From assembly GCF_036669915.1 (NCBI RefSeq), contig NC_089312.1, forward strand, positions 251,991-315,990: a stretch of DNA of 64,000 bases. The letters run 5' to 3'. Position numbers and translations under genes: made by a program. The number at the start of each line of letters is the position of its first letter. The first letter of the stretch is position 1. The notes under the pieces were generated by a model, which saw only the letters and a list, made by a program, of their open reading frames with translations, did not search any database and had not been told where the DNA came from. Shown piece by piece: positions 20,664 to 58,849 of this stretch. The stretch is from Pocillopora verrucosa (lineage: Eukaryota).

Positions 20664-20763
20664 TTAACCCTTTAACTCCCATGACTGATAAAGACTGAAT
20701 TTCTCCTTACAATATCAATACAATATCAAGTACACTAGTTATGAGGGTAAAGAAAAGTATTAA
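20664..20763. mobile_element. short/internally deleted copy of a piggyBac-like MITE (TTAA|CCCTTTAACTCCCATGACTGATAAAGACTGAATTTCTCCTTACAATATCA…) in a DCLRE1A intron
   Basis: It shares the 5' terminal ~55 bp with the copies at 32503, 56450 and 58327, and is flanked by TTAA at 20664-20667; the 3' end is poorly defined. Confidence 0.4.
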
Positions 20764-21015
20764 TCAGGGGATTATTAGTTGATCCAATACCCAATTTTCA
20801 GAGCTGATATTATAAGAATTGTGTCACAGACAGTAAGGAGAATTTGATGTTATGAGTGAAACAAATTCTGAACTCCAGATATTTTTTTAGATGTCTCTGC
20901 TGTGGTTTTATCAGTTGCAAAGTATTCAAATTAAAATAAGATACATATAGAAAGATGTTTAAGATGGAATATAATTTCAAAGCATATTTTCATCATCAAT
21001 TTTATTTATTGATAG

Positions 21016-21157
21016 AATCTAACAACATATTTGGGGGCTCATAAGTCACAGTATGCTGAACTCCTGGCATTTAAACCCACTGGGTGGGAACACAGTGAAA
21101 AGCAAGAGGACTTGTCGATGATTAAACCTTCCAAGAGAGGAAATGTGACAATATATG
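21016..21157 (+). CDS. DCLRE1A: DCLRE1A exon 9 ([47 protein letters not shown])
   Basis: The acceptor is ttattgatag| and the donor TATG|gtaagt. It matches human ...ILAFRPTGWTHS...GNISIYG. Confidence 0.85.
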
Positions 21158-21312
21158 GTAAGTACAGTGATATGCTAGATTTAACTTACTCAGCCCATCT
21201 TGTTTTTTCCACCCAACTTCACTCCTCTCCTAAAGTCAGTTTTTTTCATTACTGACAATGATGTAGTTCCTAGGGTTTGTTATATTGTTGTTTTCTTCGT
21301 CTTTATGCTTAG

Positions 21313-21479
21313 GTGTTCCTTATAGTGAGCATAGCAGCTTCAGGGAACTGGAGAGATTTGTTAAGTTTCTTCAGCCAAAGAGGATCATTCCTACTGTTAA
21401 TGTCCATTCCGCAGAAAAAAGGGCTCAGATGCAGGCCATCTTCAACAGCTGGTTATCGAAGGATTCCTTAAAGTTTTGA
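21313..21479 (+). CDS. DCLRE1A: DCLRE1A terminal exon ([55 protein letters not shown])
   Basis: The acceptor is ctttatgcttag| and the stop is TGA at 21477-21479. It matches human [31 protein letters not shown] (beta-CASP C-terminus). Confidence 0.85.
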
Positions 21480-23106
21480 GCAATGTTAAGTCTTAATTTA
21501 ATGGCAGGTTGTCAAAGAACATGCCAAAAGAGAGAAATAATATTTGATGATCGTCTATGAAGCCTACAAAATGTTAAGTATTTTGTAATTCCCATGAAAT
21601 GAAAAATTGTACAGTAGTATTTTTCTATAACCATTATTTATGGGTATTTTGTTGCATCAATCTTGAGAATTGTTTACAGTAAGTACTCAAGATATAATTC
21701 AAATATAGGTACAGCACATATGGATAAGCATAATTTTTTCTGTATTTGAAGCTACATGTAGCTGCTTTTATGTTAATAAGTTTAAGCTCTCAGTTGATTT
21801 TCTGATGCTTCATTATTTTAAATGCACTCAGATAGCCTTATTTGAACTGGTGAATGAAGGAACTCTTATTTATCCACAGAAGTGAAATATATATATATTC
21901 TTATTGTACTTATACTTACATGTACTTATTTATACATCACTGACATAAAATCATACTTGACTGTAAATCACTGTAATTTTCTCACAATTTAGACTAGAAG
22001 GACAGTGCCAGTAATGATTCTAGTTGGCTTATCTTCAGATCACAATTAATTTCATACTAGACTAGAGTATCTGAACTTTTTAAGAGATTAGCCAATAACC
22101 TGCTGATCTGCAGGAACATGTGAACTTTGCTTGTGGAGTGATTTAGCATTTGGAAGTTGATTTTGTGTTCAGCTATGTGGAAAATAAACAACTTTGTTGG
22201 TAAAAGCAAAATTATAAAGGTTGTGTGAGTTTCTCAGGCCCTTAGAGCATGTACAACCTAGGACCAAAAGTAAGGACTGTATTGTAAAATCATATTTGTT
22301 TCTTGCAAAGTTACTGGGCCTTCAGTTTCTATATGGTTCACAACCATCTCTACTTAAAATTACTTTTCATCTGCAAGACCATGTAGTTTTCAAATTAAAA
22401 TAAAAAAAAAATTGAGTGACAATCAAAGTGTAAACTGAATTCTGAGTCAGTTTTTTTACCTTACATATTCCATTAAATATTACCATTGTACTCTGTTTTT
22501 GGAATTTCAGCTTACTTCTATTTATTTAATAGAGAAAAAATTGTCTTAGACTAGAATATAAAAAGTACAGATTGAATGATAGTATGGAAATAGTTTATTC
22601 ACACCCTGTGGAAGCCAGCAATATTTTTATAGAATTGATATTATTAGAGGTTCAAGTACTTTCATACATGTTGGAAACAATGCACTTTGAACTTGGCATT
22701 GAAAAGTATTGAACTTTTAAATGAGCCTGCAAGTCTGATACGAAGGTTTTAAACAAGGCAGAGGCAAGCTCTCCTATGAACTTCGAGAAGCTTTGGACAT
22801 AGAAAAGTTTATTGCCTTGTCAAATTCTTATCAAAATCATTAATTACTGACTGTCACTTGAAGCAATTTTGTTTCATTCTTGCTGGCCAGTTTTCATTTA
22901 CCAAGTGGACTGAAAGGGGTTTTTATTGCAGCTGATATTTTTAGCAATTTATATTTCAGACCAGTGGCTTGTTTTTTATATGAATCCTGAGATACATTTA
23001 TGTGTGTCCAGCTTGTTATTCTTTCCAGGAAATGAAGATTTTTCATCCTTTGGCATTAACTGCTTTCTGTTGTGACATTGCTTTCTCATCTGCATCATGT
23101 GCTCTA

Positions 23107-23290
23107 AAGTCAGAAACAATACAATGTGTCAATATGTTTGGGGAGGCAGGGTGGCTAAGTGGTTGGGGCACTGTTCTTGTAATCAAGTGGTCCTTGGTTC
23201 AAGCCCTCTACCCTGTCTTTCACTGGATTTGTTCTTGGTTGCCTCAAGTTCAACTCCTTTGCTGCAATTTGTATATAGCCAACTGGACTG
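23107..23290 (+). repeat. tRNA-derived SINE-like element (Pol III A box TGGCTAAGTGG, B box GGTTCAAGCCC) downstream of cyclin J
   Basis: Canonical A- and B-box motifs are read directly in the sequence, with a tRNA-like 5' head followed by a non-tRNA body. It overlaps the spurious ORFs 23002-23361 and 23097-23366. Confidence 0.45.
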
Positions 23291-23894
23291 CTTCCAACCA
23301 ATTGGGAATCTTGAATATTTTGTTTATGTTTGTTTACAATGTTTATTTACAATTTGTTTGAATTAATTATTTCTTGAAGACATTAGCTACTTAGCTGCCT
23401 TGTTAATTCAAAATGAATTAAATTTCTTTTTTTTCTTTTACTAAGATACAAAATCAGATTACTCTTTCCTTTCACCAAGCTAAAGGATTGAAGTACCACC
23501 TTTAAATTGTAATAGATATTGCCATTCTTTTTAAATCTGAAGTCTATGTATTCCAGTACCTTAACATAATGTGCACACAGGGTGCGATCTGCTCCCATGT
23601 GTAGGATGTAACCTTGATCAGTAGGGGTGTCCAGGATGGGCAGAGGTGAAGCCTCAGTCGTGATGCAGCTACTGCTGCTGATGTTATCACCGAGGGAGGA
23701 AATGCTAGGAATGAATGATCTAAAGTGAAGAACAGTGGAAATAGTTAGGCAAATAATAGCGGAGCTCGCAGAGCGTAGCCCCATAATTATACAAAATAGT
23801 AGTAACCCATCAAGCTGAAAAAATTTGGTTGTACAACCGTACAAGGTGCTACTTTTGACATGCATGGTCAACTGTACCATGGGCACGCCAATGC

Positions 23895-24075
23895 CACGGC
23901 TTTGCTCAGTTAAGTCCAGTGGTTTGCACTGGGCTCCGAGTCGGACAACCTGGGTTCTAGTCCTGGCTGGGACAAGTTGTGTGGGGAAAAAAATTGTGAG
24001 CTCCGCTTTTAGGCTTGGCTAAATCTATAAATTAGTAATACTTCCTTACTGTACCTCACTGGAAAATCCCCTCCA
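23895..24075 (+). repeat. second tRNA-related SINE-like element (…GCTCAGTTAAGTCCAGTGG…CCTGGGTTCTAGTCCTGGCTGGG… then a CORE/MIR-like tail)
   Basis: It has a B-box-like GGGTTCTAGTCC and a tRNA-like head. It is unrelated in sequence to the 23107 element and overlaps the long spurious minus-strand ORF 23383-23886. Confidence 0.35.
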
Positions 24076-24384
24076 CTGTCATGATATACAAATGTAGCCA
24101 TATAAGTGGGACCTAAACCCATGGAAGGACACACTTTATTTGCTTGTTTGTTTTTGTTCCATTTTGGAATGGTTTAATGTTTGGGCGAAGTGTTATGATA
24201 AGCTCACATTTTGTCAACTAGGAAGTTTTCAATATGCCAAATTTTGAACTTGTGGGACCAAGGGATGTGAGATGCATTAAGTGTGAAGACAACCTATAAC
24301 TCCTTGCATCCTAACATCAGTACCCACATTCTCCTTACTCTTCTCTTTAAATTTCATCTGGATCTAACAAGGAAAATTTGTTTA

Positions 24385-24478
24385 TTAATCCAAGCTTCTT
24401 AGGTTGGTGACCATTTCCTCTATTATCATGCTTGTAATCAATGATTCAGCAGTATTGCTGTAGGGAGAAACTTTATGC
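24385..24478 (-). CDS. CCNJ: candidate 3' coding exon of cyclin J (…SPYSNTAESLITSMIIEEMVTNLRSLD*), unresolved
   Basis: Weak similarity to the cyclin J second-fold start (DHAFLNYAPSLVAAACVASS). No clean AG acceptor gives this frame, and the nearest strong acceptor (tttctccctacag) terminates after 6 codons; the true 3' structure is uncertain. Confidence 0.25.
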
Positions 24479-24543
24479 TGGTCACTCAAAAGGTTTAAAG
24501 GGTTGAGGGTTAGTCCAAATATTTTTTTGAAATTATATCTTAC

Positions 24544-24831
24544 CCTGCAAAGCAATTTCCAGGAAATAATGCACATATTTCCTGGTATAAGCCATTGGCT
24601 TGGTGTTATCCTCAAGACTTCTTCCACTAGACTGACAGTCTGTTGCTGAAATTGCATGAATCAAGTAGTATTCCATGAAGTGTACAGGTGTAGGTAAATC
24701 TAAGTTCCATGAGAAAAAATTCAGTAGCAGGAGTTCCATCTGATGAAATTCTGGTGCACTGAACAGGTTATGAACGTAGGCATTCAGTGTTGATATGGTT
24801 GGTATCTTGTCCTCATTTTCTTCAAACTTTG
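24544..24831 (-). CDS. CCNJ: cyclin J exon 2 (KFEENEDKIPTISTLNAYVHNLFSAPEFHQMELLLLNFFSWNLDLPTPVHFMEYYLIHAISATDCQSSGRSLEDNTKPMAYTRKYVHYFLEIALQ)
   Basis: The acceptor is tttttaacag| (minus) and the donor CAGG|gtaaga. There is near-collinear identity with human CCNJ SKFEEKEDSVPKLEQLN…[27 protein letters not shown]…KLYMAKYADYFLEVSLQ. Confidence 0.85.
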
Positions 24832-25510
24832 CTGTTAAAAATAAAAAAGAACGCATGGTCAAAACTTTAAAATACATCATTTTTCCGGGTGGAAAGCACT
24901 AGAAAACACCTCTACCAAAGTTAAATTGAGATTTTTGTTGGAATTTTCTGAATTCGTTTGGCTAAAATGGTCGAAGTGTTAAATCTTATCTGCTTCTTAT
25001 AGCAACTTAATGTCATTTTATTAAAAAGCGATAATAAGTTTGCCAATAAAATCTCTGCCAAAGAGAAAAAAAAAATAGATGCCTAAAAACATTTTGTAAT
25101 TCGGAGAAAAATTCCCCCAAGGGGAAAAACGAATACCTTATTGAACAATGTTAATTAGGTCGAAAGGCGCGCTTTGTTCGAAGGTTCAGAGGGTTCCGTT
25201 CGTAAGATCTTCACAGAAGTTGGTTTACATGGCATCAAAATGATTAATTAAATCTATGACTATATGACTCAAAGTTTTTCTTTTCTTATTGTGATCTATG
25301 AAGCAACAAAACAATTTCTCTCAGTAAGGTACGTAAGCTCAATAATTTTTTTTGGAAATCACGATCAACTTTATCAAACTTGGATATATTTACATATTAT
25401 AGCATCACAATACGACATGTAACAATTTATTTCCGATGACCGTTTCTTCTAAATGCTAGAAAGGAGTGCTGGAGTCTTACCTTAAGCAGGCACCTGGAGT
25501 ATAACACTTA

Positions 25511-25791
25511 CCTGCCAGCAGCAAACATGATAACGCAACAAGATAAAGTTTGCGTTCATCTATGTCAAATTTATCCATAAAGAGGTCCATATAATACACA
25601 GCTAAATGAAGCACACCATGAGAACTTTTAATCCTCTCGGAGAATACAGCAAGCCAATCAACAAGAAAACGCCTGAGTTTTAACTGAGGTGAAGATGAAG
25701 TAAAAGGTGGCAATCTGGTTTCTTTCTCTCGGAGAACGTCGTGTATTTCCAGAGCGAGCTGCGATTTCCACCATTCGTTTTCCACCATCAT
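25511..25791 (-). CDS. CCNJ: cyclin J exon 1 ([93 protein letters not shown])
   Basis: The ATG is at 25791 (minus) and the donor GCAG|gtaagt. It aligns with human CCNJ [54 protein letters not shown]…[32 protein letters not shown]. Confidence 0.9.
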
Positions 25792-26157
25792 CGTCTTGGA
25801 ATATGCTTTTAAGAGGCAGCAAAGAAGATCCTGATCACTGTATTTTATCTAAGTAGTTCTCCAGTGCTTAGCATTTCAATGTAAACTAAATTCCAAAACG
25901 GAACTCGAGTTCCAGCAATATACCTCTAGGGTAATGCAACGCGAAGTATCAATTTTGGACTTAAGCGGGAGTTCTATACAATGCCATATTTGGAACAAAC
26001 ACTCCAAATATGGAGTAACCGTGGCGGACCCCAGAGAAGACGACGAGAGACTGGAAATAACAACTTTCTATAAGATTTGCATAACATTCGTTTTCTCTGC
26101 TCAAGTCGGACGGGTTGTGGTGACCTCTCTCAATTACATCGATTCAAGAGGAGAATA
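25792..26157. promoter_or_regulatory. shared divergent promoter region between cyclin J (-) and MVP (+)
   Basis: The start codons lie 366 bp apart in head-to-head orientation; this is inferred from the gene models. Confidence 0.4.
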
Positions 26158-26211
26158 ATGAGTAATATTGTCCGGATTCAGCCTATGCAATATATTCATC
26201 TTCTAGATCTG
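26158..26211 (+). CDS. MVP: major vault protein exon 1 (MSNIVRIQPMQYIHLLDL)
   Basis: The ATG is at 26158 and the donor CTG|gtaggt. It matches the human MVP N-terminus M..EEFIIRIPPYHYIHVLDQ. Confidence 0.75.
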
Positions 26212-26847
26212 GTAGGTACATCGTAGTTATGCATTTGGATTATTTGCTCAATGACTCGCTCCTAACTGTTCTTCTATGGGGAGGAATTCATCAGGGAGTT
26301 TGTAAGTTCTAAAATGTTCAGCTGCTAATCGTCGATGATTCCAAATGGTTTTTATCTAAGTAGTGACATTTTAATTCTGTCAATCTCTCCGTTTTGCCAG
26401 TTGATGCAGCTATTAAGGGCAAAAGAGCACAATATTTCGACAAAAATCGAAATGTATGTTCTGAAATTTTGAAAAGTTTCAATTTCGCATAATTTTACGT
26501 AGCTTATCAGTTAAAGTTACCAATTCCACTTTTCCATGGGGATTTGAACGTTAAATGCTCCTAGATATTGAATGCATTAGCTCTACCAAATATCTTCTGA
26601 ACTAAGTATATTTTTCTTCGTATTGTTTTTAAAATGTTCTTCTTCTTCTTCTTTCTTCTCACCTGGGAAAGTGAAACAGTTTTCGTGACGTCAATAGTGT
26701 TGCACGTCACACCTGGGGGTGTAACCCTGCTGAAGTTGATAACAACAAGTGAACCGAGAATGAAATCAAACTAAGACAGATATGAAAGTAACTAGTTACA
26801 TAGTCAGTTGGCTTTCTTCATCCTATGAGTCCTTTTGCTATTTTTAG

Positions 26848-26981
26848 AACACTAATGTGACTGTACTGGAAGTGGGTCCAAAGAGTTTGATTCTACAGGA
26901 TAATCACCAATTAGTGGCTGGTCCTTTGCCATTTGTTGTCATTCCACCAGGTCATTACTGTGTCATACAAAACCCAGTCAA
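26848..26981 (+). CDS. MVP: MVP exon 2 (NTNVTVLEVGPKSLILQDNHQLVAGPLPFVVIPPGHYCVIQNPV)
   Basis: The acceptor is tatttttag| and the donor AA|gtgagt. It matches human [44 protein letters not shown]. Confidence 0.9.
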
Positions 26982-27080
26982 GTGAGTCCTAAAAAAAATA
27001 TTTTTGTGTTATTTCTACAGTTATCTCCCAGAATATTTGTGATCTCAAACCATAACTGCATTTTCTCTTGCACATTTTAG

Positions 27081-27147
27081 ACAGCCTTGTGAACCAGGAA
27101 AACAGTGTGACTTGAACCATGGGCACAGAGAAATGAGATTTTTCAAG
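27081..27147 (+). CDS. MVP: MVP exon 3 (KQPCEPGKQCDLNHGHREMRFFK)
   Basis: The acceptor is cacattttag| and the donor AAG|gtttaa; it is phase-consistent (2+67). Confidence 0.7.
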
Positions 27148-27258
27148 GTTTAAATAGTTTCTGTTACAAATGATGACTCTTCATATTTTTCTTTATGATT
27201 TAATGCATTTGGGTATCAAAGAAGCCTGTAATTTTACTTTGTGGTTTTTATCGTTTAG

Positions 27259-27313
27259 GAACCATTCCCTCTTTATCCTGGTGAAGCCATTGAAGGAGCA
27301 AGAAAAATGTCTG
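27259..27313 (+). CDS. MVP: MVP exon 4 (EPFPLYPGEAIEGARKMS)
   Basis: The acceptor is tcgtttag| and the donor TG|gtaggt. It matches human DPFPLYPGEVLEKDIT. Confidence 0.85.
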
Positions 27314-27490
27314 GTAGGTGTCCAGTTTGTTGATTTAGATTCATATTAATGTGTATGTTAAATTACATTATGGACAGTACTTTGTGATATCTTTGGAGTA
27401 CAATTGTACAGAGGTGCTAGGACAGGTGATTCCTCTGAGGCAAACAATCCTTGATTAAAAATTAGTTACCTTTTCTAATTTGATTGCACA

Positions 27491-27648
27491 GGTGGTAAGT
27501 CTGGAATCAAGGCTCTCCCAGTTATTGGACCCAATGAAGGTCTTCAGTTAAAAGCCATTGTAGATCATATAGATGGTGAAGAGGAGCGAAAGGCAGGAGA
27601 TATGTGGCAGCTGGAGGGACCTCTGACTTACAGACCAACACCATATGC
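27491..27648 (+). CDS. MVP: MVP exon 5 (GGKSGIKALPVIGPNEGLQLKAIVDHIDGEEERKAGDMWQLEGPLTYRPTPYA)
   Basis: The acceptor is gattgcacag| and the donor GCA|gtacgt. It matches human …[35 protein letters not shown]. Confidence 0.85.
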
Positions 27649-27771
27649 AGTACGTTAATATTAAATGAAACAACTTATTTCTAAGGAATTTATTTTAACC
27701 TTTATCTATGAAAACAGCTTTGTTATGGGTGACTTTCCTTCAGTCTATTTAACGTCAGAAACGGCTGTAAT

Positions 27772-27863
27772 TTCCTGCAGAAAATTGAAAAAAGAGTAAG
27801 ACCTTGTATCATCAAACATGGAGAAGCCTTGCGGCTGAAGGCCAGTCAGGGATTAGTGGATAA
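27772..27863 (+). CDS. MVP: MVP exon 6 (KIEKRVRPCIIKHGEALRLKASQGLVDKTG)
   Basis: The acceptor is atttcctgcag| and the donor AA|gtgagt. Confidence 0.8.
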
Positions 27864-28616
27864 GACAGGAAAGTGAGTTAAATGAATTAATTCAGAGTAA
27901 ACAAAGCAAACCTTGGTTACTATTTTTATATAGTTAGTAACTGTAGAACTCAGGTAAACATAAACAAGAGAAATTTTCTCGAGGAAAAACCAATTTGGTA
28001 TCAGGAAACTGAACTGGAATAGCTATGGTAGTAAGTTGTGGTTTTGAGATTTGCTTGCTTGTACTTAAATGCATTATGATTGTCAGTATAGAATTGACCT
28101 GTGAGAATTTAATCAAATTGTTCATTGGTTTTTAGTTTGATGGAGGGAATAAAATTTACCTTAGTATTAAAAACTATTCACTAAAGTGGAGGTGTATATT
28201 TACCAGGCTGCTAAGCATCAAGATAAATATCCACTGTTAGCCACTAATGTTAATTGTTGTTTTGGTGTATACTGAAACATTGAGATAATAAAGCACAACT
28301 AGATGATTTTACCTGATTTATTCCTGCAATGGTTACAAAATTTTCAGATGCAAATCTCGTGCAAGTTGCTTTGAGGTGGATGACAAAGGATATTTGCAGT
28401 TTGAGTCCCCAATCAGAGCATGCCTTCAATGCTATCCATTGTTTTACTGCATGTATACCAAAATCACATATATTATCCATTTACTTACCAAAAGTAATTT
28501 TATTTGCTGTATATTAGTCAAGTTTTATATGATAATAGCAATTCCTTCTATGATGTAATAATTTGATCATTCTTGGATATGAGTTTTAACTTCATTTAAC
28601 TTCATTTCCTTTGTAG

Positions 28617-28686
28617 GAATCGTGTTACATCTGAGCAATGGTTAATAAGAGATCTTGGAGCTTATTTGCCTGGGGCCTATGAGGAG
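28617..28686 (+). CDS. MVP: MVP exon 7 (KNRVTSEQWLIRDLGAYLPGAYEE)
   Basis: The acceptor is tcctttgtag| and the donor GAG|gtaagt. It matches human [23 protein letters not shown]. Confidence 0.85.
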
Positions 28687-32329: not shown

Positions 32330-32502
32330 GTATGTAGAAAAGTGAATGATTTTCATCATAATTTATTGTTACATTATGACTAAGATGATATGGAAAATGA
32401 CTGATAGGAGGTCCCAACCACTTTGATTCATCAGCAGTCTAATTACTAGCAATCACTCACTTGTTTATCCAGCACCTTTCTGGCTGGTAACATGGAATTT
32501 AA

Positions 32503-32818
32503 CCCTCTGACCCCAAAGAGTGATCAGCATCTAGTTTCTCCTTACAATATCAGCTAGGAACCAAACAGTCTCTGCGGCTCAGTGGTAGAGCATCAGAGTG
32601 CAGAATCCAAAGGTCTGAGGTTCGATTCCTCATGAGGACTCAGAATTTTGTCTTTGTCCCACGCTCATGACAAGACAAAAAAACCATCTTTCTCCACACA
32701 TTAAGGTCATGAGAATAAATGAGATCACCAACTAAAACAAATTCTCCTTGCCAGCACCTCAGAAAATGTAGACAGAACAGAAAAGAAAATATGCATACTG
32801 ATTTTAGGGTGGAAAGGG
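32503..32818. mobile_element. piggyBac-like MITE copy (TTAA|CCCTCTGACCCCAAAGAGTGATCAGCATCTAGTTTCTCCTTACAATATCA … GGGTGGAAAGGG|TTAT) in MVP intron 17, carrying a nested tRNA-derived fragment
   Basis: It has CCC..GGG termini and a TTAA/TTAT flank. The internal blocks (ATTAAGGTCA(C/T)GAGAATAAATGA(A/G)ATCACCAACTAAA, AATTCTCCTTG(T/C)CAGCAC, ATATGCATACTGAT) are shared with the copies at 34319, 56450 and 58327. An extra ~135-bp insert at 32565-32700 is absent from the other copies. Confidence 0.6.
32570..32641 (+). repeat. tRNA-derived fragment (pseudo-tRNA / SINE head) nested inside the MITE: D-arm GCTCAGTGGTAGAGC, T-arm GGTTCGATTCC
   Basis: The D- and T-arms are canonical. The acceptor stem does not pair (5' CTCTGCG vs 3' TGAGGAC) and the anticodon loop would be 16 nt, so this is not a functional tRNA gene. 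Confidence 0.5.
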
Positions 32819-32862
32819 TTATTGAAAGCCTCTTGTTCATTTTTGTGCTTTTTGTATTTCAG

Positions 32863-33123: not shown

Positions 33124-33338
33124 GTAGGCAGTTAGTGTCTGTGTATCACTTGGTCTGCTACGTTTTCCCGCACTTCAGGTAATGTGCCTTTTTCCACTTT
33201 CTCATTGGCTACTGATAATATATCTTTTTTCTGATTGGTCGTCGGGATTACTTTGGGTTTGGTTCTTCGTCACTCAATTGAAAAATGCTCTATTTCACTT
33301 CATTTCCACTTGTTAATACTCATTTATTTTTATTGCAG

Positions 33339-34275: not shown

Positions 34276-34318
34276 GTAAGTTCAGCAACCTTCCTTTCCA
34301 AGAAGCAACTTTCTACGT

Positions 34319-34516
34319 CAACACCCTATGATTGACTAGCATCTAATTTCTCCTTACAATAACATCCCTTAATCAATCATTAAGGTCACGTGAAAAAAGA
34401 AATGATTACCGACTAATGGAGCTCTTGATTGTTAAAAAAATTCTCCTTGTCCACACTAAGGAAATGTATAGAGAACAGTATAGAGAATATACATAAGGAT
34501 GTAAAGATGTAAAGGG
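34319..34516. mobile_element. piggyBac-like MITE copy (5'-degenerate; …GACTAGCATCTAATTTCTCCTTACAATAACATCCCTTAATCAATCATTAAGGTCACG…GTAAAGGG|TTAA) in MVP intron 23
   Basis: It shares the internal blocks and the 3' terminus GTAAAGGG followed by TTAA (34517-34520) with the other copies; the 5' end (tcaaCACCCTATGATTGACTAGCA) is mutated relative to TTAACCC…. Confidence 0.5.
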
Positions 34517-34662
34517 TTAAAAGACGCTGACTGTAAGTGGGCGCTAGGTGAGCAACGAGCCGGTGAAGTGTATCCTAGTATCGCTAGCAGTGGATGGGAT
34601 GGTTGTATAGTTGGTAGTGTGAGGAGAAAATGAAACTGATCATAGTAGAGTTTACATATCAG

Positions 34663-40364: not shown

Positions 40365-41714
40365 ATGGCTACGGTTGCGAGTGGAATGAATAACGCGATC
40401 CCAAACGGACCTGAACTTGGTGAAGTGAAAATAGAGAAAGTAGATCAGATCAAGACGAGCGATCAGAACTTCAACTGGAAAATAACGACGACGGTGCCTT
40501 CATATAACGATGCCAATTCCCTGAACACAACAACAACCGTAACAGAAAACACGTCTTCGGACAACAGTAATAATGTAGTAGTGGCAGAATGTCCTCAAAT
40601 CGATGCTGCTACTCTAAAGCTTGCTACTTTGCCAATGAAGACACAGATCATGCCTGGCCCTTACTCTGAAGTTCAGCTGCCCAAGAAGGAAAATCATGTC
40701 AAACGGCCGATGAATTCGTTCATGGTTTGGGCGCAGTCAGCGAGAAGAAAACTCGCCGAACAGTACCCGCACGTACATAATGCTGAATTAAGCAAAATGC
40801 TCGGAAAACTCTGGCGAATGCTTCCCCCTGCTGAAAAGCAACCGTACGTGGATGAGGCGGCAAGGCTAGACAAAAGACACAAAGAGGAATTTCCAGACTA
40901 TAAATATCGACCAAGAAGGAAGCAGAAACCGATGAAACGTCCGTATGTTCAAACGCGAGTTGCTGTGACACCCGGGTGGCCTGCTGGACAGGCTCAAACT
41001 CCAATCGCAATGAACGGGACGGCTACCATCGCAGCTCAAAACGGCACCTTTCCCACTACAGCCTTGACACAGAATTCCCAAGTGGCTCAGGTTTTTCCTC
41101 AAGGAATTCAGACAGTCCCAGTACAAGCAGTGAACAATGGAGGCACGGTAACGTATGCGCCAATCGGTAGTGTAGGATACGTACCAACGACTCCTATTCC
41201 GGGAGGAAGTATGATTCTACGACCAACGTTCGTTACAACTGCAGTAACGAATCCAACATCAATCCAACCTGCAGCTTCTGTAACCGTGCAGGCGGTCAGA
41301 TCTACCGTAGCAACAACTCTGGCGACTCCAAGTTATGCTATCCCGTTAACACAGTACGCTGGAGCGCCGATTATTGTTTCGAGCGGTGTCAATAACCTGG
41401 TTAACTCTACCGACAATACAAACATGGCTACAGAAAAACCTACGGAAAACGTACCTCTGGCTACCATAAGCATTCCCGCTTCAATGGCTGGGCCCATGAA
41501 CAATCATTTCGCCACTATTGCGGCTGCAGGACTTGTGGCGCCCAATTCGGATCCTGTCCAACCCAAAACCTCGGAAAGCCAACATGCGGTGGATAATAAT
41601 TCCGTTCTGACTGTTTCTGTGTCGAGAAATGGCACTGAGAACCAAGTTGATGCGTCAAACGCAGAGCATCCACAGAGTATTGAGGTGAAAACAGCTGAGG
41701 GATGTCGGATTTAA
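40365..41714 (+). CDS. SoxE-group HMG-box transcription factor (Sox8/9/10-like), apparently intronless, 449 aa
   Basis: The HMG box [76 protein letters not shown] is near-identical in pattern to vertebrate SOX9 ([43 protein letters not shown]…[28 protein letters not shown]). An N-terminal dimerisation-like region and a T/P/Q/V-rich C-terminus are present. The first in-frame ATG after the last upstream stop is 40365 (the track's 40284 start is not an ATG start), and the stop TAA is at 41712-41714. Confidence 0.85.
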
Positions 41715-48635: not shown

Positions 48636-51600
48636 AATAACATCAGAAAATATTCTGTTGGGAGATTTTGACCACTTCAGCCTAAACTAGTTGTGGCCTA
48701 AACAGTTAATCCCAGTGGAGGGTGATTTTAGTTTCAAATGATGGAAGTAAGGTTAGAGTTAGGGTGCCATTAATTTTACCAGAGTGGCGACTCTTCTTCC
48801 AACTCTTGCCAACAGGCATGGCCTCCTGAAAGAATTCTGTTGAAATTTTCGTCAGATCTCTTGAGAACAGAACCCATGACTTCTTCAATAAACCCTAGTG
48901 AACAGAAAAATCACAGGTTTTGCAAAGAGCACATCACAATCAAAATATATGCAACTACCAGATCTTGGCACGAAGTATAAAGAACTTATTCCCGCCAGTC
49001 TCAGAAACCACCTAGCAACTTGAAACATTTTCAAGTGAATCCATAACACCTTTGTGCAGACTTAACAAAGTACTCTAAGATGGTGGCTGAGGGCAATCAG
49101 ACACATTTGATTGCTAAGCACTATATGACAATAATAAAGAAAATGTTGAAGATGGACAACATTTATGACATTTCACATCAAGGAAATGACAAGAACTGAC
49201 CTCCAAGTTGCTTCTTTGCTCCTGTAAAAGACTGTACTGTACAGAAAGAGAGTTCCAACTGATGCTATCACTGTGAACTGCACTCAGTGACTGTACAAGG
49301 AAAAATGTCTTCTTCACTGACTGTAGAAAAAGTGGTAAGTCCCACTGCGTCAGAAGCAGAAACTGCTCAAGGGACCATAAGGATAAAAAATGATGTATTT
49401 TGGTATCAAACCAGTTAAATCCAAAGGACAGCAACGAATGAAAGCGGCACAGACTGGGAAAAACTGACAGTGTTAGAGCTCTGGCACTTCTATTGGCATG
49501 AGGTTCCAAGTGGCTAGATGATCGTTTCCAGTAACCTGCCATTTCAAAAATGCTTTCAAGTGGATCCAAGAGACTAACTATGGATTGTGCTGTCTGCGTA
49601 CCTGGGATGCTGTCTGTAAGTTCACTGTCCATGCGGCATTTGTCAGACAGACAGGAACCAAGAACACCACTGAAAGCTAATGAGAAAAAAATGCAATAAC
49701 TTCAGAACTGGTCACAGTAGAAGGCAAGGTAAGAGAAGCAATTATTTAATTAACTATCAGTTTCAAATGAAATGAAACCTAGTAATGAACAGATACAAGA
49801 ACCTTTAGGACTGTCACTAATTTAATTGTGTGGTGCAGAGTTGCACATAATATAGAAACTATTGCTACTTTTATTGAAGAGCTTTTAGGGCAATGTTTAT
49901 GTGCACACAGAGAAGATCAGCAGATCTTAATCTTACCTGAATCCCAGCTTGATGCAGAGGCCAGACAATGAAGATAGCAGCTTACAGCTTGAAGGGAACT
50001 AGTACCAGCTGGTGGCAAACAGCCTGTGAACAGAAAGGAAAAATAAAACAATTCTCCTCCTTTAAAATTTATATTTGGCTCACTACAGCCATGTGTGGAG
50101 CCATTTTATCATACATGAAACAACCAGTGAACATTATATTCAATAATTTGTACAAACATTTCAAGAAATCATTCATGAAAAGGATAGAACAGGTTATGTC
50201 ACCCACAACTATACAAGGAAAAACTTTAATCTTCAACCAGCTAACACATTAGATAAGCAGTGGACATAGTTCAACCAGGATCCACCTAGAAAAATAACTG
50301 CATTCATAATAAGCAAATTTTGCCTAGTTGCACTGTAAATCCAGCTGTTTAACAACATCTCTTAGAATTGTGATTCAACCAAAAATGAATTAATTAACAT
50401 TTTCAGCTCTACTGACAAAGCCAAAAGGCACTATGCAAATAACAAGCACAAACAACAAAAATAAATAAATCTATTGCATCAAAATCAAGGGAAGATATAA
50501 AATAAAATCTATATGAATTAAAAAATTAATTTATTATGATCATATTAAACATCAGGTCCAGCTTGCAGAAAAAGTACAAGCATGTAATTTTTCAGAAATG
50601 ACTTCAAATGAATCATGCAACTTGATAAATAAAGCATTTCTTGATAAGGATGAATCATCATATTTTTTGTGATGATATTGCAATGTAAATTAAAGGTCAT
50701 TGTTCAATATAAATAAGGACCTATCCCCTGGACTATAAAAGGTAATAATTTATTCTCATTTTGCACGAGGCAGAATTTCCTCAAATCAAACAAATTTCCG
50801 TCATTACAGCTGGTGTATCCATTAACATCTTCTCACACAAAGACGATAAATAAAAAACTTCATGTTACTTTATATTAAAATTGTAACTTAATTTACATCT
50901 GCAACTTACATTCAAAAAAAGAAATTTAATTAATCCTGAGAGAAAAAAAGAGAAGTCTAATTTCTTTCCAGCTAACAATTACTATTTAAAAATCATTCAC
51001 TTTTAAAATATTAGGTTTGCTAGTGATTGCAGTGTGACATCAGAAATGAGCTATAAATTTTTGGCATTTTAAAACCGAAGTATTGACCAATTCATAGATG
51101 TAATTCATAGAGTTTTGAAAAAAATAATAATCCATTTGTTGCAGACCAATCTTAATTACAAAAAATATGAGAGCAAAATCCTCACACTGATCAATTAAGG
51201 ATTTGACCACAAATGTAAATTTTACAAAAGCAGTGATAGCTGATGTGATAGATATCACTCAAGAACACCATATGCAGATACAACAAAATGTACATGATAG
51301 GATTTTCATTGGCATAAATGTAGATTTTAACACAATGCTTAATTAATTACTATTACATGAAGTTTTCAATGGCTTTAGACTCAGAGGGAAGGAAGTAACT
51401 AAAACTAAATTGATGTTTCCCCAAAGAAGGAAAAACAAAATATCTTGGGGGTCTCAAAAAAAGAGAAATTTATCCACTATGAGGCCAAAATTATTTCCAA
51501 GTTAAGAAAAAAGTCATCTTTACACATCCATTCCTGTTTGAGAATATGAAAGAGGAGACTGATGGGTCTGTATACAAACAGTTTTCTGAGCTTTGATCTT

Positions 51601-51898
51601 TATTCAACAGCTGGAACAATTATGCAGAAAAAGGCAAGCAAAAGGTTTGGTACATTATAATGGCTTATAAGGCATTTTACCATTTTCTACATTTATCACA
51701 CATTTGGGTATAATTGCATACATTTCAAGCAAAAATTAATAATTTCTTCATTCAAGATAACTCAACAGTTTGTATTTTCATATTCTGGATAAACTGCTAG
51801 TAAAGGAAATGTTTTCCTCCTTGTTTTTTTTCCCCTCTACTTTCTTATTCAAACCTTCCTTTACTTCTCAGATGTCCCCTGTACTCTTTCAAACTTAC

Positions 51899-53498
51899 CT
51901 GACAGACGTAGTGACTCCATCATGCGAACAACAACCATCAAAAGAAAATCAGACCATAAGAACAATGGACCCAAGGCCACATTTTGCATTAAGTTGCCTA
52001 TAGATTCTTGATTTTCTGCCATCAGTGCCACCAGCTGCTCTCCAAAACTGGCCCAAAGCATAGTGCTATAATCATAATGTAACTGCTTTGTTGTTTCAGA
52101 GTCTAAGGGTGCGTTCCACTGAACACGCTTGTTGAGTCTGGGTGATCCTGGACTTGAGCTGTGCCTGAGAATGCCATGACCCTCCTGATGGTGCAGTAAT
52201 GAACTTGTTGACCCTCCAGCCTCCTCAGCTGTTGATGTCCCCTGCAGATCAGCATCTTCACTCCTTGAACTTGAGGTCAGCTGCTCTAATGGCGGCAACT
52301 GAATCACATTTTTCCTCTCACCACTAACATGACGGCTTAAGATAAGTGTTGTTGAGGTAGCAAGTTGTGATATTAAATTACTGAAAAATTTCTGCTCCTC
52401 TGAATCAAATGAAAGCAATGGAGAGTCCGGCTCGAGTTTCAGGAGCGGGATTTGGTTGCGGCTTAACACTGACAACACTCCATTTTTGAGTGTACCTCCC
52501 TCAAGTCTTACATTCCCTCCAGTACATACCACCCCAAAGTCTTTCCATTCGAAGTTTGTAGCAAAGTCGTACTTTAACGTCCGAGTAACCTCCTGATGTT
52601 CGCTTACCAATTCATAAACGTGACCAGCCAAAATACGAGAACGTTCACAAGCAACGCCATTCAAAAGTTTGTTCAGTGACAATAAACAAACACTAGAAAC
52701 AGCTGTAGTTGAAACTGCAGTTTCTCGACCCTTCGACTGCACAAAATTTCTAATCTCGCTCACACTTAAAAGTTCTCTTTCGTCGCTCTGAAAATTTCTA
52801 GTGTACTCAAAAAGGCGATTGAAATCTTCAATTCCCTGGCAAACAGCACTTAAACCTTGCTGACTCAACCACCATTTGCATTTTTCGGCAAGGCGCAACA
52901 CGCACGATAAAATAATTGAAATGAGCGATATACTCGTATCTGCTAATTGCGAGAGCGCTTTATTCACCACTTCCAAGTCCTCCAGCATGTCTGGCACACA
53001 TTTGCGAAGCCATGGATCGGAAAAGATAAGTTTTCTTATCGCCAGTCGGTACATACATTGTGTTTTTGCTGCATGGCAAATGTCGTGAAATCTTTCAACT
53101 TTGAATGGGAACTCGCTTGGAATTGGCATTTCACCATCTAAATAGGCCATATACTTTTCCACTGTTTCTTCTAGCTCTTGTACAAACTTAGTGGAAGATT
53201 CAAGGCGTACCAGGCACTCTCTCGCCAAAACAATCTTTGAGCGATCAAGAAATTTCTGGCCGATATCGGTGAAAATCTCGCACAAAGGAACACCTTGCTC
53301 AAAATGCCCAAAGCTGCCGGGAACATGTTGAGGTTTCAAGCACGAATTTCTGGTTAAACTTACACTTTTGAACGCTTTTTTGAGAGTCCAAATGTTCTTT
53401 TTTATGTCCGTTGGGGCAATTTGAGTAACAGAGAGTCTTTGGAAAGAGTTGTTGATGCCATCGTTGCTAGCGGCTGCCGAAGACGAGCTGAAATTCAT
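51899..53498 (-). CDS. large first coding exon (533 codons) of an unidentified conserved-looking protein; continues via donor TCAG|gtaagt into downstream exons
   Basis: A 1.6-kb uninterrupted frame on the minus strand starts at an ATG (53498) and ends exactly at a consensus donor (cag|GTAAGT, minus coordinates 51898-51893). Predicted features are mixed helical and low-complexity regions and an S/T/P-rich patch (SSPGSPRLNKRVQW); no homolog could be assigned from memory. Confidence 0.6.
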
Positions 53499-56449
53499 AG
53501 CCCTTCAAAAAGAACTAAGCTGCCCTGCTTTCTTCCTTCAGCGGCACAACAGATTGGCAGAAAAAGCATAATCTTGGTAGTAGGACGTCTGGCACAGGAC
53601 TGGTTCGACAATAAAGATCTACATGGTAATAAAAAAGTTTATCTGTTTAGCGTTCAGTCAGTGCCTGATCTACCATCTTTGTTGATAATAACAAACTTCA
53701 TGCCCAGTTCATCCGCGCGCTAATCCACCGGAAATAGAAAATTCCTAATTCCAAAGAAAAATTTCAGAAACCATTTTCTACCTCCAATACTCCGCCGAAA
53801 TAACCTGTCATAAGGCTAGACTTTTTGACGAAGACGATGGAAGTCAATACAGAATTAAAAAGCTAAAAATGCAAATTGAAACCAAGCCGGGGGGAATAAA
53901 AGAAGCCATAATTAGCAATGAACGCCCTTAAAATAAAGGAAAGGTTTTCTTTCGTTCAACTTACATTTTAATGAGTTGTTTTCTGGTGATTCTGGGAGGG
54001 AGAGATCTTGCTTACTATCTCGGCCAAGGAAGCTTGAATAATCTTTGAATTCGCTATCGTTTAAAAAAAGAATATTATTATACACGAAAAAACAAAGCGT
54101 CTAAAATTTGCCAACAAAGAGCAGCAACTACTTGTACAACATCGGCACGATTTTTAAATGTCTTTCAAAAACTTCACCCTAAGATATGAATTAGTGGTCA
54201 ATATAGAAAAGAAATTAATTGTGGTTAATAACCTCGAGCTCTATAATATGCCATTAACTACGCTTTTTCAAATTGAAAAGACTCGCGTCGATTGATCCCT
54301 TCCATTAAAACAGGTGTACGCGGATAAGCAAGGCGAGAGTTTGAATTCAGCAAGATGATGTGAGACACACCGATTTCTTTTACATTAACAAATTAAAATT
54401 GAATTCGATTGGAGCGGGAAAAAGTGAAGAGGTGGTCTCTAGGTGATGAATCGATGCCAGTCCAATACAATGACCGGATGGATATTTCAAGAGCACGATG
54501 CTAAAAATAGACCTCAATAACCACCTGGTGACCATCCGTGCATAAAACACTTCAAAAACCCATATTTCATTTCTTTTCCTTTAATTTTCCCTTCATTTCA
54601 AAGCGTAAAAAGCCGACATACGCTCAGTCATAGAAAAAAAAGCTTCACTGATTCAATGAAGCAACAATACACTAATATCGATTAGTTTATTTTCTCGTGT
54701 CACCGAGTTTTAGCGCTCTTTAACAATTCACGTGAAGACCATGTTTCCATTTGCAGTACATCCAGTTCTAAGATATATTGCATAACACTTTGCTGAATAT
54801 TTCTGTGTTCAAAGAATAGCTCAAAGCAGAATTTGTTTTACCGTTCTATTTTGGTATGGACTTTGAACTAAGTCTGTATTGAGTTTCATCTCTGGGCCCG
54901 AATAGAATTATTTCTTTTTTTACTATCAATTGCAGATTTCTTTGAACCAAAAATTCAAATAAATTATCGACAGCTCGCAAAAATTGAAATGACTGGAACA
55001 AATTTCCAACGTATCTTAGGAGGAAAAAAAGCGAAGTGCTCTTGACACCAGTAACACGAAATGAAACACTTAACAGCAAATTTGACATGAAAGTTATTAC
55101 GAAGATCCAAGGAAAACGTCAAAATGGCAGAACCAGAGTTATGTGTATGAACAACTGGACAATATATTATAAGTCGTTCCATTCTACTTTATTCATCATT
55201 GTATTTCCAACTCGGATCTATAATGCATCCATCTTCCCAATTATAGCAACGTGCCGCTTAAGACTGGTTTCAAATCATTCTGCTAATTAACATAATAAAG
55301 ATTTTAACATGTACACAGCTGAACCTCACAAAAGTTATAGGGTAGAAGGTAAACAATTTTTTTTTTCGCCAGGTTTACCGTACGAGGCTACACCGCAACT
55401 GCCATAGTATTGACAGTGACTGAGATAAAAATAGTGACCTCTTTTGGCTTTGACTCCCTGAGGTGAACAACTCCAAAGAGATTCGTTTACTAGTACAATT
55501 TTTTGTGCCGCGAACCAGAGAAAGGTTGCTCCATATTGGATGGAATGTCAAATTTTAATTTTTTTCAGGAATTCTTTTCACACTCAAATCATGTAGCTTT
55601 GCAAGTCTTATGGATGTATCTTCCTATTTATACCAGCGAGAAAAGGTCGCTAAAACCCCAAATGTTCGGTGTGTTGAATAATTAGATTTAGAAAAAAAAC
55701 ATGAAACTAACGCTGCTGACATAGCACTACTGAATGGGTTGTCAAAGCGTTTGTGGTTCAGATGATCCATTAAGTATGAAGGATGAAAGGAACTGAAACA
55801 GATAACAGATTACTATTGTTTGTGTCCAAAAATTAGTAGGCTGGACTGCTTAAATTGCAATGCCAACATAACTGACTGCATCAAAACTACTCTGAGTGTT
55901 GTGAAACAATTGTTGTCATATAACAAAGTAACTAAATACAGTGAATAGCTTGACAGTAACCAGTGGCTAGTGGAAAGGGAGAGGGACACTGGTTCACAAT
56001 GCTTTGGTACAGAGGTGTCAGTAAATCTTTCTGTTATAACAAACCAGTAAAAAGAGCACTTCTTTCATACAACAATGTAAAGGATACAGACTAAAGCTTA
56101 TGGAAACGTATAAATAAACATCTTTAGCAAATAAATGTTACTGTTTTGAGTTGTGTCATACAAAAGGTTTCCCACAGCAAAAACAGCACATAAAGATTGA
56201 AATACCAATATATACAGTGAAATTTATTTGAATCATTGCTGTTGCTTTAAGTCCATGAATAATAAATTTAATCTTATCCATCCTCTTCATTTGGTAGGAG
56301 TTCCCAAATTCATTTTTTTTTCCAGATGTCACAATTTTGTTTTCAAATAAATGGAAAACCTTGATTTTCATACCAAGACTTTTCCTTGGAAAAATTAAAA
56401 AGGTCTAAAGTATTGTCTTTAAATAAGGCTAGAGCTCCACTGCAATTAA

Positions 56450-56653
56450 TCCTTTCACCCCTAAGAATGACTAGCACCTAATTTCTCCATACAGTATCAC
56501 CCATGAGTCACACATTAGGGTCACAAGAATGAGGGAAATGATCATTAACTAAAGAAGCTTTATGCTGTTGAACCAATTCTCCCTGTCAGCACTATAGGAC
56601 ATGTATACAGAACAGTATGGAGAATATACACACAGATATTGGGGTTTAAAGAG
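56450..56653. mobile_element. piggyBac-like MITE copy (TTAA|TCCTTTCACCCCTAAGAATGACTAGCACCTAATTTCTCCATACAGTATCACCC … ATATTGGGGTTTAAAGAG|TTAA), intergenic between the unknown gene and ROMO1
   Basis: TTAA is at 56446-56449 and 56654-56657. The terminal CCTTTCACCCC and GGGGTTTAAAG are imperfect inverted repeats, and the internal blocks are shared with the copies at 32503, 34319 and 58327. Confidence 0.6.
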
Positions 56654-56982
56654 TTAAGATAGTAAATTCTTTAACTACAACCAATTGCCACAATTTAAAC
56701 AAAAACTAATCAAGAAAAGATGACACAGATAAGATATTGACACAAACAAATGATTTGACTTGACTTTTCCTTTTCTACGGGTAACATTTTATTTTCATCT
56801 TTTTTTCTTTAGTTTTCTGCTGAACTTATGTCATATATGACAGGATACAGTGTTCTAATCGTTATAAACATTGACAGCACAGACTGTGTTGAAAGTTTGC
56901 CAGCATCTCTCACATAATGATATCCTAGCCTTAGCAATGACTGGTGTTCGTTACAGAATAAAAAATCCCACTTTGTTAGAAG

Positions 56983-57091
56983 TCAACATCTGATAGCTGT
57001 GCCAACAGACATGAACACTCCAAACGTTCCTCCTCCTTGAAGCATGATCTTGCCGACACTACTGACTAACTCTCTTCCTCTTAGTCCATAT
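56983..57091 (-). CDS. ROMO1: ROMO1 (reactive oxygen species modulator 1) exon 2 (…[36 protein letters not shown])
   Basis: The acceptor is ccccgccag| (minus) and the stop is TGA at 56985-56983. It matches human ROMO1 …[35 protein letters not shown]. Confidence 0.85.
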
Positions 57092-57753
57092 CTGGCGGGG
57101 AAAGAATAAGTGTCAAGTTTTCTAGCTTTCTGCAGTGTTTCTTTCACTTTTCTAGCAATCAATCTAAAGAGTGATACTCTGAGTAGGACCTCTGCTTATA
57201 AACATGATCATCTGGACAATTTCAGTTACTAAAATCTTGCTTAACAATAATCTCCTTTGTCATAAAAGTAAGATAAAAATGCTACAATGCAATTGAGCCT
57301 GCCCACTGATGTCAAAGTTTTGTTTACTGCCTAACCAGGTTGTGACCTAAGACAAAATAACTAACATTTGTACAACCCCACAAACCCTCCCCCTCCTCCT
57401 ATTTTATTGACGTCAAAATGACACATCAAATGACACATTTCGGTATTCACATATCTTCATCATTACTTTGGGAGGGGTATGGTGGTTAGCCGTTTCTTTT
57501 GATTCTATCCAGGATCTTAGGAAATTTATACATAAAACATTTCCATATAAACACTTTATCCGGAGTGCAACTGTGATGAACTTGCATCGAAAGACGACAT
57601 CTTTTTCATCTCAGTAACCGGGCTGCGATTTCCATATGAACAGATGACAATTAAGTACAAGTAAAATAGAGTGAAAGAATTCCTCTAAATCTAGGTTTAG
57701 GTACTTATAACGCTACAGGTCCAAAAGTTGTAGTAGTAATATTAGCATCTTAC

Positions 57754-57866
57754 TTGAACGCAGAATAGGTTCCAAAGAGCGCAGCAGAGCTCATTCCAAT
57801 AGCAAATCCGATCATGAAGCCAACTTTAACCCGGTCAAAACAGCTTGGCTGAGGTGCTCTTTGCAT
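57754..57866 (-). CDS. ROMO1: ROMO1 exon 1 ([37 protein letters not shown])
   Basis: The ATG is at 57866 (minus) and the donor AA|gtaaga. It matches human [43 protein letters not shown]. Confidence 0.85.
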
Positions 57867-58163
57867 ACTTATCCTCTTCTTTATTTCCTATGAGTTGCTA
57901 GTGTAAACTTGAAAGATAGAGAATGAGAACAGCAAAAACAGCCCCACATGCGAGGAGAGATGACTGCCCGTTAGCTCGTCAGAAGATTGGACATGAGCTT
58001 TCGCTAGCACGTAAGAAAGAAACCGCTGGGCATTCCATCGCGTTCGCTTTGTTCCCATTCCTTCTCGTTTTCGGCGATGATGTTTCGCTTTTCACGAGAG
58101 CTTCCGGGATTTGTGTATTTAGGAAGGCTTTTATCTTTAACTTCGCTTAGATTTTACAGGAAA
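57867..58163. promoter_or_regulatory. shared divergent promoter between ROMO1 (-) and the DUSP11-like gene (+); contains an ETS-like CTTCCGG motif (~58097-58103)
   Basis: The start codons lie 297 bp apart head-to-head. An ETS/GABP-type core is read directly, which is typical of bidirectional promoters. Confidence 0.4.
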
Positions 58164-58204
58164 ATGAATACAGAGGTAGTTATTGACAAAAGGATACCTG
58201 ATAA
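58164..58204 (+). CDS. DUSP11: DUSP11/PIR1-like RNA phosphatase exon 1 (MNTEVVIDKRIPD)
   Basis: The ATG is at 58164 and the donor AA|gtgagt. Confidence 0.7.
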
Positions 58205-58326
58205 GTGAGTATATATTTTTATTACCTCTTTATATCAAAAGGAACTTTGACCAAGTTGGTTTGTGTGGTGTTCTTCATGAGTCTTCAATCTTCCATTATA
58301 GATTGATTAAGTGTCTCCACACTTAA

Positions 58327-58482
58327 TCACCCCTGAATCAAACATAAAGTCACGAGAGTAAATGAAATGATCACCAACTGTAGCAGCTGTTGACTGTTGA
58401 TTAAATTTCCATGTCAGTACCTTAAAAAATGTGTCGAGAACAGCGTGGAGAAGATGCATACTGACGTTATGGTGTAAAAGGC
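58327..58482. mobile_element. piggyBac-like MITE copy, internally deleted (TTAA|TCACCCCTGAATCAAACATAAAGTCACGAGAGTAAATGAAATGATCACCAACTGTAGCAG … GGTGTAAAAGGC|TTAA) in DUSP11 intron 1
   Basis: TTAA is at 58323-58326 and 58483-58486, and the element shares internal blocks with the other copies. An 8-bp palindrome TTAAGTGT..ACACTTAA sits immediately 5' (58307-58326). Confidence 0.55.
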
Positions 58483-58849
58483 TTAAAGAACGTCATCAGT
58501 CATTATCATCATAAAATGGAATGGTGTTATGCCTTTCTAAAAGACATTACTATTATAAAAGATACCATAAAAACCATCTGGATATGAGAAGGAACTACTT
58601 TTTCAGTGAACTGTATCACGATTTAAGTAAGCTGGACCTGCATGCTACAAAATTGATAACTATCCACCTATGTAGAGAAAGATGTTTTTTAATCGTCTTG
58701 TCACGAGCACACTATCCTCCTATTTCTTGGATTAGTGGCATACTACAAAGGGCTGAGACTCAAAAAGGCATCTTCAGAAACTTTTGACGGTGGCCAATTT
58801 AATTTGACAGTTGCCAATTCATTTGACAAAACTAAACTATCTTGTAGTG

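Follow-up and report, generated by a model that had tools for sequence, protein, structure and literature searches.

Six old copies of a short element, very probably a piggyBac-superfamily miniature inverted-repeat transposable element, in a gene-dense stretch of the Pocillopora genome

MITEs (miniature inverted-repeat transposable elements) with TTAA target sites and piggyBac-like ends were described in the corals Acropora millepora and A. palmata in 2010, under the name CMITE, by Wang, Zhang, Meyer and Matz (PMC2872659). The hallmarks of the piggyBac superfamily are a TTAA duplication and terminal inverted repeats (TIRs) of 12-19 bp with the terminal motif CC[C/T]T…[A/G]GG (PMC2872659). The autonomous Acropora elements AmiPB1, AmiPB2 and AmiPB3 carry the TIRs CCCTTTCCCGTCC, CCCTTTAACGCCC and CCCTTTCCCTACTA, respectively, and the ~100-bp CMITE families II and V carry CCCTTTAAGCCCTA and CCCTTTCCACCCTA (PMC2872659). 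Here we describe a 64,000-nucleotide stretch of the Pocillopora verrucosa genome (contig NC_089312.1, positions 251,991 to 315,990; the window), which very probably contains six fossil copies, c1 to c6, of a ~204-bp MITE of the piggyBac superfamily. Outside corals, human MER75 and MER85 and the Xenopus TxpB derivatives are, like the Pocillopora family, short and non-coding, with CCY…RGG ends and TTAA duplications; these derivatives are mobilised in trans and are mostly ancient and fixed, and they differ from the Pocillopora family in host and are unrelated to it in sequence.

A profile hidden Markov model of the copies, run against the window with nhmmer, returned six matches (E 2e-60 to 2e-14) and nothing further until E >1, and a second profile, built from 46 copies from outside the window, found the same six and none beyond. 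With such a gap the shared sequence is real, far beyond chance, and the repeat family proposed in a first-pass annotation, which had been made from the sequence alone, is thus borne out. That annotation counted at least five copies; its five are real, and it missed a sixth, c6 (24300-24502, minus strand), which blastn of the five against the window also recovers, at about 24297-24504. Three of the extents it gave (32503-32818, about 34315-34516 and 56450-56653) hold, and two were too short: the supposed 92-bp copy at 20668-20759 is a full-length element that continues to ~20864 (~197 bp) with a decayed 3′ end, and the copy placed at 58327-58482 runs 5′ to ~58280-58300, where its terminus can no longer be recognised. 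Nor do the copies differ by internal deletions, as had been supposed. Their lengths are uniform at ~197-204 bp, except in c2, where a nested insertion (~147 bp) brings the total to 316 bp, and the remaining differences are point divergence, which amounts to 20-34% (pairwise identity 66-80% by blastn).

The best preserved copy in the window is c4, with the termini TCCTTTCACCCC…GGGGTTTAAAGAG. Because of its insert, c2 was aligned in two nhmmer pieces (model positions 1-71 at 32499-32569 and 61-211 at 32692-32821). Both the 5′ terminus and the 5′ target-site duplication (TSD) of c3 are decayed (span 34311..34520); c5 ends 3′ with AAAAGGC followed by TTAA (58483-58486), and its 5′ third is too diverged for a terminus to be recognised. 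Among the readable junctions in the window, the 5′ flank is TTAA in three of four and TCAA in the other, and the 3′ flank is TTAA in three of five and TTAT in two. Copy c1, which aligns best to copies on four contigs (L074, L115, L102 and L007) with the terminus CCCTTTAACTC, is a member of a divergent sister subfamily, with homology over most of its length.

To characterise the ends in a larger set, JGI metagenome contigs were scanned with an internal 18-mer, TTTCTCCTTACAATATCA, which gave at least 120 contigs of coral metagenome; since the 18-mer is internal and blind to the termini, the element ends were sampled without bias. In these sequences nhmmer found 141 matches in 122 non-redundant sources (~560 kb), or ~130 copies beyond those of the window. 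We considered conservation of the 18-mer among the collected copies as a sign of constraint and rejected it, because the contigs had been selected by that exact 18-mer. The four bases at the 5′ junction are TTAA in 61/101 copies and lie within one mismatch of it in 93/101; at the 3′ junction the corresponding counts are 34/69 and 64/69. Control 4-mers taken from the flanks, 10-55 bp further out, are TTAA in 0.75% of cases and within one mismatch of it in 8.2%. Position by position, T-T-A-A is conserved at 83/89/90/85% on the 5′ side and 86/93/84/80% on the 3′ side. One base further out, on either side, conservation has fallen to background (16-42%), and inside the TTAAs it stays at 82-97%, where the sequence reads CCCT… and …AGGG (82-96% per position for the initial CCCT).

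Built from 46 full copies, the consensus measures 204 bp plus two TTAAs, and the modal copy length is 202-204 bp. Its TIR is perfect over 15/15 bp, the first 15 bases being the reverse complement of the last 15 (CCCTTTAAGCCCCAA), and in individual copies an average of 12/16 TIR positions match. Inverted symmetry continues imperfectly to ~45 bp and takes in a further block (5′ side, GCAT…TTCTCCTTAC; 3′ side, GTGAGGAGAATATGCAT); when the consensus is folded as single-stranded DNA its ends pair over ~40 bp (z = -5.3 against shuffles). Coding capacity is absent: neither the window nor the collected loci show similarity to a piggyBac transposase, and the open reading frames (ORFs) in the element are spurious, at 35-74 aa. 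The first-pass annotation had held that copies failing to end at TTAA, or lacking an inverted repeat, would point to another repeat class; in the event the ends of ~100 independent copies lie consistently at TTAA and the consensus TIR is perfect.

What the target looked like before insertion was addressed by a search for uninterrupted matches, in which each full copy was represented by its two flanks joined at a single TTAA, and two cases were informative. At locus L038 the flanks are TTAACCCT followed by TTAA on one side of the copy and TTAA followed by GCCCCAATAG on the other (CCCT/TTAA…TTAA/GCCCC). With the copy and one TTAA removed, the sequence reads as another copy's 5′ end, intact (TTAA CCCTTTAAGCCCC…), and it matches locus L091 at 95% across the junction. 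At L059 a reverse-oriented copy lies within another copy at a position where the consensus reads TTAC, with the 4-mers TCAA and TTAC on either side. Together, these two paralogous sites, the only ones at which the duplication could be compared with an uninterrupted target, show that four bases are duplicated and that the TTAAs derive from the target rather than from the element. Since the TIR itself contains TTAA, the family can insert into itself, which explains some head-to-tail pairs, such as that at L130. Tandem arrays have also been reported for CMITEs, where they were attributed to replication slippage and not to independent transposition (PMC2872659).

These junctions bear directly on whether the family might instead be a PIF/Harbinger (Tourist-like) MITE whose 3-bp TTA or TAA duplication has been misread as TTAA. 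Tourist MITEs are common in many genomes, and their TWA target is contained in TTAA; however, all four TTAA positions are about equally conserved at both ends with the next base outward at background, a 3-bp duplication would leave the element asymmetric, and the host sequence at L038 is rebuilt only if exactly four bases were duplicated. We therefore consider a Tourist-like origin extremely improbable.

The family shows both hallmarks of piggyBac, a 4-bp TTAA duplication and a TIR with the terminal CC[C/T]T motif, and its CCCT motif and first six bases, CCCTTT, match the TIRs of both the autonomous piggyBac elements and the piggyBac MITEs of Acropora (PMC2872659). The TTAA junctions and the 15-bp consensus TIR thus support the earlier assignment, based on TTAA sites and CCC…GGG ends, to non-autonomous elements of this superfamily. 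By analogy, an autonomous element would supply, in trans, a piggyBac (DDE_Tnp_1_7) transposase that binds the CCCTTTAAGCCCC termini, and probably also the sub-terminal inverted block TTCTCCTTAC / GTAAGGAGAA; the MITE would then be excised and pasted into TTAA sites, with duplication of the TTAA. Two points here are inferences from established piggyBac biology: which transposase mobilised the family, and what part the sub-terminal block plays. The copies in the window are now too decayed to be mobile.

One feature of c2 could suggest a different origin, namely that the family is a short interspersed element (SINE) or other retroposon whose ends fall at TTAA by chance, the genome being AT-rich: c2 contains a tRNA-like segment, which matches the Rfam tRNA model at 31.4 bits (gathering score 29) and is the sole Rfam match in the window. 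That segment, however, is a nested insert in one of the six copies and is missing from the consensus, and ARAGORN called no tRNA in it. The family itself lacks an A-rich or simple-repeat tail and has a perfect 15-bp TIR, a fixed 4-bp TSD and a sharp conservation boundary, so that a retroposon reading has virtually no chance of being correct. The insert is probably a tRNA-derived SINE; it does not belong to the MITE family. Its tail recurs at 58671-58708 (minus strand), near the DUSP11-like gene, and at L124 6505-6592, and the same arrangement of c2 with its nested insert is found in P. damicornis (GCA_003704095.1).

Compared with CMITEs, the Pocillopora family shares a coral host, the TTAA duplication and TIRs beginning with CCCTTT. 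The TIR of CMITE II (CCCTTTAAGCCCTA) is identical to CCCTTTAAGCCCCA of the Pocillopora family at 13/14 bases, and the left TIR of CMITE V (CCCTTTCCACCCTA) is identical to the 3′ end of c2 read as its reverse complement. In both groups copies insert into or next to each other, and no autonomous partner was found for most CMITE families, nor, in the sequences searched here, for this one. The interiors differ, in that CMITEs are ~100 bp long with a conserved 75-bp internal region whereas the Pocillopora element is ~204 bp, and a 60-bp CMITE core matched neither the window nor the family-bearing contigs, 560 kb in all (blastn, word size 7, E ≤ 1e-3). Membership in the CMITEs was accordingly rejected, the element being twice as long and the core absent from both sequence sets; since the core was not found and the length differs, we regard the Pocillopora elements as a separate family of the same kind. 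On sequence comparison, then, it is a different member of a kind known in corals since 2010, set apart from the published CMITEs.

The likeness extends to the autonomous elements: the left TIR of AmiPB2 (CCCTTTAACGCCC) is identical to the start of c1 (CCCTTTAACTCCC) at 12/13 bases, and AmiPB1-6 and AmiPB2-like elements share TTAA flanks and CCCTTT termini with the MITE, although they are 2.2-3.7 kb long and code for a DDE_Tnp_1_7 transposase. With AmiPB2 (Dataset S1, PMC2872659) as the protein query, 267 relatives were found at E ≤ 1e-20, of which five were fetched and led to seven loci. Transposase genes of the piggyBac type (PF13843) with TTAA-flanked CCCTTTATAGACC TIRs do occur in ENA assemblies with AmiPB2-like genes. 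Two of the seven loci (L135 and L136) hold complete elements of 2.4-3.8 kb with TTAA flanks and the TIR CCCTTTATAGACCAT, and the others have no recognisable TIR. These two elements (L135 3899-7718 and L136 3899-6267) are AmiPB2-like and apparently intact, with a 593-aa DDE_Tnp_1_7 ORF. Three contigs, drawn from two ENA assemblies, carry identical 593-aa ORFs, and this suggests that an autonomous piggyBac was active there not long ago.

Several observations weigh against the piggyBac assignment or the mobility that it implies. TTAA duplication is not unique to piggyBac, as Kolobok elements make it too (PMC6004289), and the Xenopus T2-MITE, a member of the Kolobok superfamily, also shares the MITE architecture. 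The T2-MITE nevertheless differs from the family at its ends, with a terminal motif of AGGRR as opposed to CCCT: purines predominate at the termini of Kolobok elements and the T2-MITE (RR or AGGRR), and 10/10 full-length Xenopus Kolobok elements begin with AG (PMC6004289), whereas CCCT…AGGG is the piggyBac CC[C/T]T motif, identical to the cloned coral piggyBac TIRs, and does not fit that of Kolobok. A Kolobok MITE is in our view highly improbable. The remaining points concern the state of the copies and the source of a transposase. Among the window copies c4 alone keeps both TTAAs, and the TIRs in the window are degraded; c4 also folds no better than shuffled sequences (z = +0.4), a loss of end pairing in keeping with its decay. 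Neither an orthologous empty site nor a presence/absence polymorphism was seen, so it is structure and the paralogous sites that speak for mobility. When AmiPB1, 2, 3 and 5 and the T. ni piggyBac were used as tblastn queries, a piggyBac transposase turned up neither in the window nor in the contigs that carry the MITE (~560 kb), and the seven transposase loci include no autonomous element with matching termini. Even the complete elements at L135 and L136 share only CCCTTTA, the seven terminal bases, with the MITE; as they have no internal similarity to it, none is shown to be its parent.

The sharing of ends without interiors does raise one further idea. Because the Pocillopora family, the sister subfamily of c1 and CMITE II and V have near-identical CCCTTTAAGCCC / CCCTTTCCACCC termini and unrelated interiors, it may be that a single piggyBac transposase lineage, long-lived in corals and possibly represented by a domesticated PGBD-like gene, set several passengers in motion across Scleractinia that are not related to one another. 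We consider this unlikely and offer it as speculation. If it were true, the sub-terminal inverted block TTCTCCTTAC / GTAAGGAGAA would be where this transposase binds, and the idea would bear on the origin of MITE interiors, which the 2010 CMITE paper left open (PMC2872659).

There is no sign of recent activity. In the larger set pairwise identity reaches 93% at most, and the identity of copies to the consensus is 70-94%. Pocillopora contigs of other colonies were reached through flanking coding ORFs (the cyclin-like ORF and a CCDC142 exon ORF). In Tara Pacific contigs c1 and c6 were present in 7/7, c4 in 3/3 and c5 in 2/2, and c2, with its nested insert, and c3 were present in P. damicornis GCA_003704095.1. 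The window is 98.2-98.6% identical to the latter assembly over 21 kb (30387-51677 against L001), with many small indels, and 99.2-99.7% identical to the Tara Pacific coral-metagenome contigs (0.3-0.8% difference). The insertion polymorphism that the first-pass annotation had suggested looking for did not appear, every copy being present in the contigs examined and no presence/absence variant being seen. Copies that are 66-80% alike and present in every Pocillopora contig examined are old and fixed, and the insertions are older than the split of these Pocillopora lineages. The sole variation seen was a 66-bp deletion inside c4 in one Tara contig (L147 6910-7053, corresponding to window 56545-56610, between GAAATGATC and AACAGTATGG), which could be an allele or a collapse of the short-read assembly. 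An apparent duplication at c4 in L146 was rejected as an artefact of a scaffold gap with overlapping ends. Two other routes to orthologous sequence gave nothing: the flanking ORF 58521-58787 had no match on record, and when translated MVP exons, joined end to end, served as a protein query, no MVP protein from a coral was among the matches.

Fixation of all six copies in the Pocillopora contigs examined, together with the position of c2, which ends ~40 bp upstream of an MVP splice acceptor, could be taken to mean that they were kept through co-option, for instance because they help to regulate or splice housekeeping genes from within introns, and are not neutral fossils. Strong enrichment in the introns of such genes had indeed been claimed. 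Four or five of the six copies lie in introns, which corresponds to P ~0.04 to 0.54 for an intron share of 40-60%; in the annotated 21-kb stretch at least 64% of the sequence falls within genes, and the exons are short. Six copies in a gene-dense window are too few for such an enrichment to be shown. Against co-option stand also the 20-34% divergence between copies, their decayed termini and the 66-bp deletion within c4 in the Tara contig, and old neutral insertions would be expected to be fixed in any case. We judge co-option very unlikely. As neutral fossils, the copies lie in introns and spacers simply because these make up most of the gene-dense window.

The family is common, at about one copy per 8-10 kb in the Pocillopora DNA examined (six in the 64-kb window), and it has left traces in protein catalogues. 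Translated in one frame, the element's 5′ half gives NPLTPKSDQHLISPYNITPES.IKVTRIKEMITN, and a profile of this translated half collected 795 short “protein” clusters (E ≤ 0.001) with the peptide NPLTPKSDQHLISPYNITPES.IKVMRIKEMITN. All 120 clusters among the matches listed (P0001-P0120) derive from ENA assemblies, and one of them led to the Tara Pacific contigs. The 795 clusters are spurious ORFs on copies of the element, that is, host-DNA artefacts in microbial gene catalogues. The family is an ordinary one and leaves knowledge of piggyBac and MITE biology unchanged; its value is mostly practical. A repeat that is common in corals now has a clean consensus and boundaries that are defined, the origin of hundreds of spurious “proteins” in catalogues of metagenomes is explained, and there are fixed, dated insertions that could serve as phylogenetic markers in Pocillopora. 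Copies can lie close together: on a 2-Mb coral contig (L007, 9984-10980) three elements occur within 1 kb, namely a truncated copy of the sister subfamily, an abutting full copy with intact TTAAs and a ~130-bp, internally deleted copy of the sister subfamily. At the third position the model aligns over ~214 bp in other Tara samples, compared with 76 bp in L007.

Table 1. Copies of the element and the nested insert in the window.
Feature	Position	Strand	Length	Ends and flanks	Location	Match
c1	20668 to ~20864	+	~197 bp, full length	5′ TTAA 20664-20667; 3′ end decayed, GAGTGAAACAA / ATTC where GAGTGAAAGGG / TTAA is expected		nhmmer E=6.5e-23, model positions 1-199
c6	24300-24502	-	203 bp	TCAA 24503-24506; TTAT 24296-24299		blastn; nhmmer E=4e-55
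c2	32503-32818	+	316 bp	5′ TTAA 32499-32502; 3′ flank TTAT	MVP intron	
tRNA-like insert	32553..32700	+	~125-147 bp		nested in c2	Rfam tRNA, 32568-32640
c3	~34315 to 34516	+		3′ TTAA 34517-34520	MVP intron	nhmmer E=5e-55
c4	56450-56653	+	204 bp	TTAA 56446-56449 and 56654-56657		nhmmer E=2e-60
c5	58280..58486	+			first part of DUSP11-like gene	nhmmer E=2e-45, model 19-210, envelope from 58283

Among the neighbouring genes, a cyclin-like coding ORF (24533-24880) has c6 25-30 bp past it. At the matching P. damicornis locus the NCBI gene calls are MVP (with Vault and MVP_shoulder domains), an HMG-box gene and a CCDC142 gene. The HMG-box (Sox-like) gene is represented in the window by a single-exon ORF (40365-41714), for which an identical protein is encoded on P. 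damicornis RCHS01000623.1 (GCA_003704095.1; PMC6668484) and in 258 blocks of Logan assemblies.

A second dispersed repeat, unclassified, is present at 33148-33292 and 60510-60653, and the two copies are 69% identical over 153 bp. ATTGG motifs that resemble CCAAT boxes abound in it (CTCATTGGCT, CTGATTGG); an MVP intron holds one copy, and the other is found ~0.8 kb downstream of the DUSP11-like coding ORF (59509-59736). Finally, at 58849-58866 the window contains a run of ~16 C followed by ACC.

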